DNA of 64,000 bases. Origin: Escherichia coli (GTDB lineage Bacteria; Pseudomonadota; Gammaproteobacteria; Enterobacterales; Enterobacteriaceae). The translations under genes and the position numbers were made by a program. Shown one piece after another: positions 3,846 through 54,778 of the stretch. The notes beneath the pieces are model-generated. The model had not been told where the DNA came from. It saw only the letters and a list, made by a program, of their open reading frames with translations, and did not search any database. Where the stretch lies: the NCBI RefSeq assembly GCF_003019035.1, contig NZ_CP027447.1; one strand, written 5' to 3'. The first letter of the stretch is position 1, and every line of letters begins with the position of its first letter.

Positions 3846-5489
3846 TTATGCCGTCCGGGCAACGGCATCACGCGAAGCAGCATCGCGCTCTTCGCCTGTC
3901 AGCTCGCTAAGTTGCCCGTTGCGCATTTCCAGCAGGCGGTCAGCGTGGATAAAGTAATGATCATCATGACTGATGGCGAAAATCGTTTTACCCATCTCCT
4001 GCATCAGCGGTAGCAGCACCTGATAAAACTCACGGCGGAAGTGTGGGTCCTGATCCGCCGCCCATTCATCCAGCAGGATAATATCGCGTTCTTCTGCCAG
4101 CGCCAGCAACAGCGCGACGCGTTTTTTCTGCCCTTTTGATAACTTCAGGTTAACAATACGCCCGTTACTTAACTCAAGCTTATGAGCCATTTTCAGCTGC
4201 GCCAGCCACTTCTCAACCAGTTGCGGGTTAGCGGGTTGCCCCTCCGGCCCCAGCAGTTGATCAAACAGCCAGACATCGGTAAACACTGCCGAAAACAGTT
4301 TGCGATAATCTTCCGGTTGTTCGCCGCTGACAGGTTTGCCATCCAGCAAGATTTCGCCGCTTTGTGGCTGATACAAGCCCGTCAGCAACATCGCCAGCGT
4401 CGATTTTCCGCTACCGTTGCCACCAATCAGAAACAGCAGTTCGCCACGTTTGATGGTGAGGTTAATCGGCCCAACGGAAAACGCGTTATCCTGATAAGCA
4501 AACGTCACGTTACGCAGCTCCAGCGTTTGCCAGTTGGGAAACGCCTGCGGGCGCGGAAACTCTGCTTTGAAAGGCGCGAGCGCGAATTTGTTCAGCTTGT
4601 TAAACGCCACCTGCGCCGTCAGCAGCGTCGGCAATGCGCCAACTGCCGAAAGCAGCGGCGTACGCAGGAATAACAGCGTCAACGAATAGGTCGCGGCAAC
4701 GTTGGTATCAGCCCAACCGAGACTGTTCGCCATCCAGAACACCAGGCCGATAGCGCCCAGCATCATGATGTTTGACCAGTTCACGGCACTAAGATGGAAG
4801 GTGTCTGCGCGGATAATATGATGGCGATACTCTTGCGCATCAGGAATGTAGAGGTTGTTAAACACATACTCGGCGCGTTCCCGGTTCAGAGTCAGCTCTT
4901 TGCGCCCTTCGAGTACGGTTTGAAAATCCGTGTACAGCTTATCTTCGGTTTCACGCAGGGTCGCCATATGTTTGTACACCCGCGCCACCAGCACAAAACC
5001 GCCCCAGATGGTGACTGCCATCCAGATAGCCGTTACCAGCAACATTTTGCCCGACAGCATCCACAAATACGCCGCGGAACCGATAGTGAGAATGATCCCC
5101 TGCACCAGTTCCGGCAGACGCACAAAAGCAATGGTGATATTGCGCACATCGCTGGTTAACCCCGCCAGCAACGAAGCGCTACCAAGTTGTTCAATGCGCT
5201 CGACGTGGGTATCCAGAATCCGCTTGATAAATTCACTACGCAGTCGGTAAACGAAGTGATGCCCCAAAGTGGTGAGCGCCAGTTGCGATCCGAGAGTGAC
5301 TGCCATCAACAGCAACAATAATCCCAGAAACTCCGGCAACACCAGCAGACTGGTATCCGCCGTTTCGATAAGGCGCTGATTGATAAAAGCAATTAAGCCA
5401 ATGCCTAATGCCGCACTGGCGAGGCTTAGCGCCATCACACTGATAAATGGCCAGCGATACTGCCGCCAGACAAGTACAAGAAGTTCCAT
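3846..5489 (-). CDS. yojI: ABC transporter (fused permease/ATPase), microcin J25 efflux type
   Basis: 547-aa ORF; N-terminal TM domain, C-terminal Walker [10 protein letters not shown] and Walker [12 protein letters not shown]. Confidence 0.9.
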
Positions 5490-5564
5490 GCAGAAAACCC
5501 GGACAATGAATTACAGCCCGCAGTTTAAACATCTTCGCGCGCACAGCAATAATAATTCTTATTT

Positions 5565-6215
5565 TTATTCTTTTTTACCTGCCTGACGGAATGTCAGGTT
5601 GTAGCGGCAGTCGGTGGTGAGTGGATGAAACCCCGCTTTCAACGGTTGAATGCCATGATAAAACAGCCGCGATTCACCGCCCCATACCACCACATCGCTA
5701 TGTTCCAACAACAATCTTTTTAGCGGATCATTTCGTTTCAGGCCGCCAAATTGAAAAATCGCGGGTAAGCCCAGAGAAACAGAAACAATTGGCGCGCGCA
5801 GATCCGGTTCGTCTTTATCCTGATGCAGCGACAGTTTCGCGCCAGGAACGTAGCGGTTGATCAAACAGGCATCTGGCTGGAAATCTGGATAGCCCGCCGC
5901 CGTAGCCGCACGTTGGCATAAATCATGAAAACTCTGCGGCATGGCGGGCCACGGTTTATTTGTTTGCGGATCAATGGGCGAATAGAGATAACCTTGCCGA
6001 TGGGTCGTCCAGCCCAGATGCCCACAGTTGGTCATCGCCACCGACATGGTATATCCGCCTGGAGTGACCATCTGGCGAAACGGCGACTGGCTGGCAACGT
6101 CATTAATATCGCGTATCAGTTGCTCCGCAGCGTTAAAAGCAAAACGGTGCAAAATCACCGCTCCAGCCGCCAGTGGTTCTTGCCACGGTTCAGCATCAGC
6201 AAACAGATCCAACAT
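5565..6215 (-). CDS. alkB: AlkB, Fe(II)/2-oxoglutarate-dependent DNA/RNA demethylase
   Basis: 216-aa ORF MLDLFADAEPWQEPLAAGAVIL...; downstream of and overlapping ada. Confidence 0.95.
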   Translation of the reverse strand: MLDLFADAEPWQEPLAAGAVILHRFAFNAAEQLIRDINDVASQSPFRQMVTPGGYTMSVAMTNCGHLGWTTHRQGYLYSPIDPQTNKPWPAMPQSFHDLCQRAATAAGYPDFQPDACLINRYVPGAKLSLHQDKDEPDLRAPIVSVSLGLPAIFQFGGLKRNDPLKRLLLEHSDVVVWGGESRLFYHGIQPLKAGFHPLTTDCRYNLTFRQAGKKE

Positions 6216-7279: not shown

Positions 7280-7346
7280 AATCTGCTCCCTGGTTAAGGA
7301 TAGCCTTTAGTCTGCCCGGTCACCATCGCGCAAAAACCAACAATCT

Positions 7347-7359
7347 TGCGCTTTAATTT
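7347..7359 (-). promoter_or_regulatory. Ada box in the ada promoter
   Basis: Reverse complement reads AAATTAAAGCGCA (AAANNAAAGCGCA consensus), about 70 bp upstream of the ada ATG. Confidence 0.7.
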
Positions 7360-9948: not shown

Positions 9949-10041
9949 GCTATCATCATTAACTTTATTTATTACCGTCATTCATTTCTGAATGTCTGTT
10001 TACCCCTATTTCAACCGGATGCCTCGCATCCGGTTTTTTTT
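9949..10041 (+). ncRNA. micF: MicF antisense sRNA (represses ompF)
   Basis: GCTATCATCATTAACTTTATTTATTACCGTCATTCATTTCTGAATGTCTGTTTACCCCTATTTCAACCGGATGCCTCGCATCCGGTTTTTTTT; divergent from ompC, ends in hairpin plus T-run. Confidence 0.9.
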
Positions 10042-52338: not shown

Positions 52339-53415
52339 TTACTCTTTATTAAGGAATTTTACTGCCTTATCAGGGAAATCAGTAAACAGCCCATTTACAC
52401 CCGCTTTGTTATACAGAGCATCATATAACTGATTCACATCAGTAGTGTATTCAGGCAGCTTATCTGACCGCACGGTGTAAGGATGTACTACCAGTTTATT
52501 CTGCTGAGCATCCTGCACCATGCCAGTGAGTTTGATATTACCCGGCTGCGATGTCTCCTCAATCAACATATGGTAATCCGGACCAATACCATCAGCATAT
52601 TCCGCCACCTGTTTCATGGCCCCCGGCGTAAACATCCAGTCGTAGTTGTAATTAACCCAGCTTCCGTCCGGTTGTTTCTGCTGAGTTTCGTTCCAGTCGG
52701 TATAGGCAATCAGCTGTACCAGATTGAGGTCCATGCCCATTTTAGGTTCCAGCTCATTCTTAATACGCTTCAGTTCATCGGCATCAAAACATTGCAAATA
52801 AACTTTGTCGTCCTTATCGGTGTAACCATATTTCTTCAGCACTTCCAGCGTTTTTGCCGCAATATCCTTCCCCTCCTGATGATGGAACCACGGCGCTTTA
52901 ATTTCTGGATAGATACCGATATTTTTCCCGGTAGAGTGATTTAACCCCTGAACAAATTCAATCTCTTCTTCGAAAGTGTGTACCCGGAAGTCAGATTTAC
53001 CCATCGGGAAACGCCCCGGATAAGTCTGTACTTTCTTACCGTTTTCAATATCGAAACCTTCGGTAAATTTCAGTGACTTAATTTCATCGAGCGTGAAATC
53101 TATCGCGTAGTAACGACCGTCTTTGCGCGCCCGATCCGGGAAACGATCGGCAACATCAGTAACACGATCGAGATAATGGTCATGCAGAACAACCAGATGG
53201 TCGTCTTTGGTCATCACCAAATCCTGTTCCAGATAATCCGCTCCCTGCGCATACGCCATCGCTTTTGCTGGCAGCGTATGCTCCGGCAAATATCCACTGG
53301 CACCGCGATGGGCGATGACTATTTTTTCGTTGCTGTCCGCCGCCATTGCACTGCTTCCCATGATCATTCCACTCATCATGATCGCCATGCTAAGGTTTTT
53401 CAGCGTCAATTTCAT
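52339..53415 (-). CDS. glpQ: Periplasmic glycerophosphodiester phosphodiesterase
   Basis: ORF track starts at 53472; the ATG at 53415 gives the canonical 358-aa MKLTLKNLSMAIMMSGMIMGSSAMA... (signal peptide). Confidence 0.93.
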   Translation of the reverse strand: MKLTLKNLSMAIMMSGMIMGSSAMAADSNEKIVIAHRGASGYLPEHTLPAKAMAYAQGADYLEQDLVMTKDDHLVVLHDHYLDRVTDVADRFPDRARKDGRYYAIDFTLDEIKSLKFTEGFDIENGKKVQTYPGRFPMGKSDFRVHTFEEEIEFVQGLNHSTGKNIGIYPEIKAPWFHHQEGKDIAAKTLEVLKKYGYTDKDDKVYLQCFDADELKRIKNELEPKMGMDLNLVQLIAYTDWNETQQKQPDGSWVNYNYDWMFTPGAMKQVAEYADGIGPDYHMLIEETSQPGNIKLTGMVQDAQQNKLVVHPYTVRSDKLPEYTTDVNQLYDALYNKAGVNGLFTDFPDKAVKFLNKE

Positions 53416-53419
53416 GCCA

Positions 53420-54778
53420 TTAGCCTCCGTTGCGTTTTTGCAGTAATTCCTGATGGCGACGTTTTTCGCCAATCATCACAACAATCAACAAGATAACCGC
53501 CAGAATGCTGCCGCCAATCATTACCATAAAGCCGCCATCCCAGCCGAAGAAGTCCACGGTGTAGCCAACAATCGCGCTCGCCGCCACCGAACCGCCCAGG
53601 TAACCAAACAGCCCGGTAAAGCCCGCTGCCGTACCTGCCGCTTTTTTCGGTGCCAGTTCCAGCGCATGCAGACCGATCAGCATCACAGGGCCGTAGATCA
53701 GGAAGCCGATAACAATCATACAAATCATATCTACGGTTGGGTTACCTGCCGGGTTCATCCAGTAAACGATAGTCGCGATGGTCACCAGTGTCATAAAGAA
53801 GACGCCGGTGGCCCCACGGTTGCCACGGAAGACTTTATCCGACATCCAGCCGCACAGCAGGGTGCCCGGAATGCCCGCATACTCATAGAAGAAGTAGGCC
53901 CAGGAGGATTTATCCAGCGCGAAGTGTTTCACCTCTTTCAGATAAGTCGGTGACCAGTCGAGGATGCCGTAACGCAGCAGATAAACGAACACGTTGGCGA
54001 TAGCGATGTACCACAGCAGTTTGTTCGGCAGCACGTACTGCATGAAGATTTGCTTCGCCGTCAGCTCCTGTTCCGCTTTTTCGTTATAGTCGTCCGGATA
54101 ATCATTTTTGTACTCTTCGATCGGCGGCAGGCCACAGGATTGCGGGGTATCGCGCATCATCGCAAAGGCGAACAGTGCCACCAGAATGGCGCAGAAAGCG
54201 GGCATATAGAGCGCCGCGTGCCAGTCATTGAACCAGGCCATCCCCAGCAGGAACAGCAGCGGCGGAATACCACCACCGACGTTGTGCGCACAGTTCCACA
54301 CTGACACAATGCCGCCACGTTCTTTCTGCGACCACCAGTGCACCATAGTACGACCGCACGGCGGCCATCCCATCCCCTGGAACCAACCGCAGAGGAACAA
54401 CAGTACAAACATCACCGCGATGCTCGACGTCGCCCACGGCACAAAGCCCATAAACAACATCACTGCCGCCGCCAGAATCAAACCTGCGGGCAGGAAAACG
54501 CGCGGATTCGAGCGATCCGATACCGAACCCATGATGAATTTCGAAAATCCATAAGCAATCGAGATCCCCGAAAGGGCAAAACCTAAATCACCGCGTGAGA
54601 ATCCCTGCTCAACCAGATAAGGCATAGCGAGCGCAAAGTTCTTACGAACCAAATAGTAAGCAGCATAGCCAAAGAATATCCCCAGGAAAATTTGCCAGCG
54701 CAATCGACGATAAGTCGGATCGATCTCCGCGGCAGGTAAGCGCGCTTTGTGTGGCGCTGGTTTAAAAATACTCAACAT
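53420..54778 (-). CDS. glpT: Glycerol-3-phosphate:phosphate antiporter
   Basis: 452-aa [37 protein letters not shown]... Confidence 0.95.

Follow-up and report, generated by a model that had tools for sequence, protein, structure and literature searches.

We analyzed a 64-kb stretch of Escherichia coli DNA, referred to here as the window, in which ompC, apbE, ada, alkB, and yojI follow one another on the minus strand (Table 1). The calls for apbE, ada, and alkB agree with the RefSeq annotation of matching E. coli genomes. A spacer of 73 bp separates apbE from ada, the ada start codon is preceded by a Shine-Dalgarno sequence rated good (GGGAG, 7290-7286, minus strand), and the ada stop shares one base with the alkB start. 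The Ada open reading frame carries C38, C42, C69, C72, R45, R71, F114, H115, R118, and C321; among these are Cys38, which accepts the methyl group, the zinc cysteines, and all residues with reported A or B box contacts (R45, R71, F114, H115, and R118). Residues 1 to 139 match PDB entry 1ZGW with an E value of 1.7e-90, and the protein also matches 1U8B, 1WPK, and 1SFE; 1ZGW, 1U8B, and 1WPK are solved structures of N-Ada.

A strong terminator-like hairpin lies on the 3' side of ompC (8501-8482, minus strand). Because apbE starts only ~74 bp past it, the apbE promoter must fall in that gap. Another strong terminator-like hairpin is found upstream of ompC on the other strand (10013-10035, plus strand), which we take to be the place where micF is expected. 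Terminator prediction returned no terminator-like site between 7100 and 7600 or farther down to yojI, including the alkB-yojI interval (5489-5565). A tiling-array study found a transcript induced by MNNG that spans ada, alkB, and yojI (PMC6505713); together with the lack of a predicted terminator between alkB and yojI, this transcript suggests that yojI, a microcin J25 efflux transporter gene, may be coinduced by alkylation damage.

Table 1 Features of the apbE-ada region in window coordinates; genes are given from start to stop
Feature	Position	Strand	Basis
ompC	9614 to 8520	-	
apbE (FAD:protein FMN transferase), 351 aa	8408 to 7353	-	NF007774 equivalog, 724 bits; PDB 2O18/4XGV match; RefSeq
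Ada box, older 13-mer form	7347-7359	-	Unique exact match; same in K-12
A box AAT, apbE codon 351 (Asn), last sense codon	7356-7358	-	Register; A box definition (PMC4437013)
apbE stop TAA, three A/T pairs adjoining the A box	7353-7355	-	Conservation; contacts (PMC4437013)
Inverted repeat GCGCAAGA / TTTTGCGC, RNA hairpin, 8-bp stem, 8-nt loop, no U tract	7328-7351	-	
B box GCAA, intergenic, 6 nt past the A box	7346-7349	-	AATTAAAGCGCAA match; GCAAG in 80/80 species
GGTTTTT block between the Ada site and the probable -35	7332-7338	-	82 to 100% conserved in 80 species
Candidate -35 (TTGCGC, 7333-7328) and candidate -10 (TAAAGG, 7309-7304)	7304-7333	-	Putative
ada (bifunctional regulator/O6-methylguanine-DNA methyltransferase), 354 aa	7279 to 6215	-	NF011964, 750 bits
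alkB (DNA oxidative demethylase), second operon gene	6215 to 5565	-	NCBIfam equivalog, 378 bits
yojI	5489 to 3846	-	

The end of apbE coincides with a sequence of the Ada box type. The 13-mer AAATTAAAGCGCA, read from 7359 to 7347 on the minus strand, occurs exactly once in the window, compared to 0.01 exact matches expected from dinucleotide shuffles, and the ada start codon (7279) lies 68 to 80 nt downstream of it. It matches exactly the older Ada box consensus AAANNAAAGCGCA, as quoted in PMC6505713. In addition, AATTAAAGCGCAA (7358 to 7346, minus strand) conforms to the definition derived from N-Ada/DNA structures, in which an A box (AAT) is separated by 6 nt from a B box (GCAA) (summarized in PMC4437013, PMC3788762, and PMC6505713).

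Relaxed forms of the motif are not enriched in the window: two 13-mers with up to two mismatches were found versus 3.2 expected, and the degenerate pattern AAT-N6-GCAA occurred 9 times versus 17 expected. The second relaxed match, AAATTAAAGCGCC (52892-52904, minus strand), has one mismatch to the Ada box and lies in a glpQ-like coding sequence (52339-53472, minus strand; peptide ...YPEIKAPWF...); we judged it to be a chance occurrence, as it is inside a coding sequence and without a GCAA B box. The lack of enrichment would also suit a chance origin of AAATTAAAGCGCA itself, but with 0.01 exact copies expected, we rejected this explanation, which we consider scarcely credible. The exact 13-mer, its location upstream of ada, and its conservation (see below) together indicate that the site at 7347-7359 is not random.

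The reading register confirms an initial annotation of this DNA, which had placed the Ada box at these coordinates, overlapping the co-directional apbE gene and its stop codon. That annotation spoke of the "last codons" of apbE; the overlap is real, but it consists of the Asn351 codon and the stop, preceded by a single base of Lys350. Position 7359 is the third base of Lys350 (AAA, 7361-7359), and the next six bases are AAT and TAA, so that the apbE reading frame, stop included, covers 7 of the 13 operator bases; the other 6 (AGCGCA, 7352-7347, minus strand) are intergenic. In the N-Ada/DNA complex, the A box is hydrogen bonded by R45, and the three A/T pairs adjoining it are contacted by R45, through its main chain, and by R71, whose partners are the second and third of these pairs (PMC4437013). 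The bases contacted by R45 and R71, AAT-T-AA, are thus exactly the Asn351 codon and the TAA stop.

We compared this junction within E. coli and Escherichia. A 351-nt junction query found matches in 5,421 of 5,426 complete E. coli genomes, all with apbE and ada as the annotated flanking genes, and in strain SCU-172, the match is 100% identical; the window is thus E. coli chromosomal DNA. Relative to K-12, differences at the junction are few and scattered, and none falls in the operator or its immediate surroundings: no change occurs in the region that begins ~14 nt before the 13-mer and extends to the candidate -35, and the strain of the window differs at four spacer positions, all downstream of the operator (e.g., 7328 C/T and 7311 A/C). 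Among eight aligned Escherichia sequences, the operator is invariant except for one spacer single-nucleotide polymorphism in one strain, E. coli UID2309220013. This G-to-T change in the N6 spacer (AAATCGCAA versus AAAGCGCAA) breaks the older 8-mer core AAAGCGCA but affects neither the A box nor the B box. In the 3' arm of the junction hairpin, this lineage carries GTGC, versus GCGC or GCGT.

A scan with the Ada protein, taking one genome per species, gave 80 loci from Enterobacteriaceae, in genera including Escherichia, Citrobacter, Salmonella, Kluyvera, Enterobacter, Klebsiella, Raoultella, Kosakonia, Lelliottia, and Trabulsiella. The apbE gene is directly upstream of ada in all 80, and the spacer measures 66 to 83 bp in all but two loci, which have insertions of ~150 bp. 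These two, from Citrobacter sedlakii (L024:2270-2500) and Klebsiella indica (L080:2263-2500), have spacers of 227 and 234 bp; their insertions are downstream of the conserved operator/promoter block and could represent small mobile elements or repeats within the ada leader. When alignment columns are numbered from the apbE stop codon, the pattern AAT-TAA-A-NN-GCAAG keeps the same register to that stop in 79 of the 80 species. Columns -3 to +3 (AATTAAA) are invariant save for one A-to-C change at -3, columns +6 to +10 (GCAAG) are invariant throughout, and columns +17 to +23 form the GGTTTTT block. Variation is unrestricted elsewhere in the spacer and at the third positions of apbE codons. Operator columns are therefore fixed among flanking synonymous and intergenic sites that change, a conservation beyond the neutral expectation.

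The codons of apbE that lie within the operator behave differently from those that do not. Where the last residue is Asn, it is encoded by AAT in 79 of 79 cases and never by AAC, whereas AAT makes up only 41% of the other Asn codons of the same genes (n = 862). Nearby Phe codons that are fully conserved at the protein level split synonymously 53/27, 38/42, and 25/54. All 80 species stop apbE with TAA, while ada in the same genomes ends with TAA in 53, TGA in 22, and TAG in 5; the species are related by descent, so that these counts are not independent events, a dependence that the neighboring synonymous-site controls, which share the same tree, mitigate without removing. The protein itself varies just before its end: residues -5 to -2 are variable, and the penultimate one is K, Q, A, R, P, or N or is replaced by a stop. 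The distant ApbE structures 6NXI and 5MGY, a weaker substitute for ApbE C termini from outside the apbE-ada synteny, align only up to residue 346 or 342 of 351, suggesting that the tail is outside the conserved fold. A protein database search with ApbE gave, among the best 120 matches listed, only Enterobacteriaceae proteins of at least 76% identity.

In "Escherichia sp. ESNIH1" (L077), an in-frame TAG stops apbE one codon early (about 2411-2428), and AATTAA is kept as noncoding DNA, which naturally uncouples the operator from the coding sequence. Enterobacter asburiae INSAq146 is the sole exception in the A box, with CAT (His) in place of AAT; its Ada response may be weakened. The fixity of AAT and TAA against the codon and stop controls, the variable residues that precede them, and the retention of AATTAA after uncoupling all point to the operator as what freezes these bases. 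On this comparative evidence, we conclude that the six bases AAT-TAA are held by DNA-level selection for the Ada operator and not by ApbE function.

Downstream of the operator, the GGTTTTT block probably belongs to the region of promoter/RNA polymerase contact. In most genera (columns of 7332-7345, minus strand, in loci L003 to L082), the B box and an inverted copy of it form GCAA-GA-TTGC, which is followed by GGGTTTTT; Escherichia has TTGT where most genera have TTGC after the B box. We positioned the candidate -35 and -10 elements and a start site near 7297-7300 after what we take to be the published ada promoter. A sigma-70 consensus scan of the junction found no sigma-70-like promoter, which fits a promoter that depends on an activator. 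In published coordinates, the Ada operator presumably spans positions of about -60 to -47 relative to the start of transcription, and methylated Ada is said to protect roughly -63 to -31 of the ada promoter, a footprint that would include the operator if transcription starts near 7297-7300. DNase footprints of the ada promoter were reportedly obtained by Teo (1986), Sakumi and Sekiguchi (1989), and Landini and Volkert (1995). One independent pointer to this start comes from the tiling array, in which a minus-strand apbE segment classed as "similarly expressed" ends at K-12 position 2308447 (PMC6505713, Supplementary Table S4). By arithmetic from the row coordinates, this boundary lies ~21 nt upstream of the ada ATG, and beyond it runs the MNNG-induced ada-alkB-yojI transcript (PMC6505713).

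The same conserved stretch, AATTAAA...GGTTTTT, could alternatively serve apbE as a terminator or as a translation-termination context. In most genera, a short palindrome, GCAAGATTGC, sits between an A-rich run and a T run, and Escherichia has the 8-bp hairpin GCGCAAGA-N8-TTTTGCGC. However, the latter is specific to Escherichia, its arms vary within E. coli, and it lacks a U tail; with a centroid energy of -11.2 kcal/mol and a region z-score of 0.49, it is no better than shuffled sequences. Stems measure only 3 to 4 bp in most species, including those of other genera; the median minimum free energy is -6 kcal/mol for 44 nt, and no hairpin followed by a U tract is conserved in the apbE-ada spacer among the 80 species. 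Nor does the apbE-ada junction of the window contain a G+C-rich hairpin with a following U tract, the signature of an intrinsic (Rho-independent) terminator, or a match to any Rfam family at an E value of ≤1. The invariant columns correspond exactly to the A box with its A/T extension and to the B box, which argues against a role in termination, and AATTAA persists in "Escherichia sp. ESNIH1," in which it is no longer the end of the reading frame. With no terminator call, no U tail, and short stems elsewhere, we rejected this alternative, which, like a chance match of the 13-mer, hardly deserves belief.

The initial annotation further proposed that apbE read-through and occupancy of the ada promoter may each disturb the other. 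The absence of a predicted terminator between apbE and ada makes read-through structurally plausible. Transcripts of apbE that continue into ada could account for part, or even the larger share, of the basal expression that does not require Ada (~1 molecule per cell) and that prepares cells for the adaptive response. We regard this idea as doubtful. No intrinsic terminator is predicted from the apbE stop to ada or yojI, whereas ompC has a strong one; the 80 species have no conserved hairpin with a U tract in the spacer; and the ada Shine-Dalgarno sequence would support translation of such a message. Basal ada expression has been modeled as a constant Ada-independent rate, of unassigned origin, that dictates the delay of the response, with the Poisson noise of basal Ada setting this delay (PMC6818145). 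On the other hand, a full-text literature search yielded no report of an apbE-ada cotranscript, and the SMRT-Cappable-seq supplements have no entry for apbE or alkB. Basal Ada is, moreover, extremely low, which argues for little translatable read-through, and Rho-dependent termination or RNA processing may occur at the Escherichia hairpin (7351-7328).

A second way in which the overlap could matter is as a lacI/O3-like roadblock. If methylated Ada, or Ada with RNA polymerase at the ada promoter, stopped apbE polymerases a few codons before the stop, the products would be nonstop apbE mRNA and trans-translation, and ApbE would decrease under alkylation stress; in the other direction, Ada would be displaced by polymerases elongating through apbE. 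In favor of this idea, the operator covers the 3' end of an upstream gene transcribed in the same direction, with no predicted terminator in between; as it starts with the last sense codon and contains the stop, a stalled polymerase would not have transcribed the stop. There is also precedent, as the lac operator on the end of lacI raises trans-translation of LacI and coupled transcription-translation is blocked by DNA-binding proteins (bioRxiv 10.64898/2026.05.06.723219; PMC3985003). In one condition, the tiling signal of apbE is slightly reduced (10.34 versus 9.98 log2), but the gene is classed as similarly expressed with and without MNNG (PMC6505713), which speaks against a large effect on apbE. 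Ada is also an activator of modest affinity and no tight repressor, and operator constraint within a short spacer fully accounts for the conserved overlap. We consider both the roadblock and its consequences for ApbE very improbable.

Taken as one proposal, the overlap would be a functional coupling point at which read-through provides the basal ada mRNA that sets the stochastic waiting time and bound methylated Ada truncates apbE transcripts before their stop, as at lacI/O3; we think this unlikely. If it were true, the coupling would link flavoprotein maturation to alkylation stress. Some 20 to 30% of cells are slow to mount the adaptive response (PMC6818145), and if read-through feeds basal Ada, it could, speculatively, be the source of the noise behind these cells.

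The reading that we prefer, at a probability of roughly 90%, is that the site at 7347-7359 represents the canonical E. coli operator of the ada-alkB promoter, which Ada activates. The Ada box is among the best-characterized activator sites in E. coli, and thus its presence upstream of ada is expected. This identity, as proposed in the initial annotation, is borne out by the 13-mer, the A and B boxes, the identity to K-12, and the presence of the cognate regulator. Following the binding chemistry and activation described in the literature, Ada methylated at Cys38 would bind the operator through its N-terminal domain, with R45 and R71 reading the A/T pairs of AAT-TAA and F114, H115, and R118 reading GCAA, and would recruit RNA polymerase to a weak core promoter. 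The ada-alkB operon, running on into yojI, would then be transcribed from ~20 nt upstream of the ada ATG. Because the spacer is only 73 bp long, the upstream half-site falls on the last sense codon of apbE and its TAA stop, and the demonstrable outcome is evolutionary, in that the operator sets the terminal residue of ApbE and the choice of its stop codon throughout the Enterobacteriaceae. The overlap itself probably has no dedicated regulatory role, which is an argument from lack of evidence.

The operator is an already known element, and the overlap can be read from any annotated E. coli genome; a full-text literature search combining apbE, ada, and alkB returned no paper discussing the apbE-ada junction. 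The family-wide freezing of AAT-TAA is a small comparative addition, new here. It provides a clean example of a transcription factor site that constrains the terminal codon and the stop codon choice of a neighboring gene across a bacterial family, and it may be useful in teaching and as a warning for analyses of codon usage or stop codons.

Compared with known systems, the closest is the ada operator of E. coli K-12, which is the same element in another strain: the operator, the ada-alkB operon, and the regulator residues are identical, and there is no substantive difference, only the four spacer positions downstream of the operator. The K-12 operator is reportedly described by Teo et al. (1986), Landini and Volkert (1995), and He et al. 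(2005; PDB 1ZGW/1U8B). The E. coli alkA and aidB promoters and the Pseudomonas putida alkA-ada promoter follow the same logic, with an A box (AAT or ATT), six nucleotides, and a B box (GCAA) (PMC3788762). Relative to ada, their spacing from the core promoter is different, as is the base 5' of the B box; at ada this base is a C, a difference that confers roughly 10-fold-higher affinity there (PMC3788762). No overlap with an upstream coding sequence has been described for them.

The likeness to lacI and the lac operator is in the arrangement, with the regulator site for a downstream operon on the last codons of a co-directional gene and no terminator in between. In the lac case, the gene acted on is that of the tight repressor itself, and experiments have shown both truncated transcripts and tagging. 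The SsrA tagging of LacI is reportedly the work of Abo et al. (2000). The ada case differs in that the regulator is an activator and the upstream gene is an unrelated one, encoding a flavin transferase. The apbE-ada junction is, in sum, no new kind of system.
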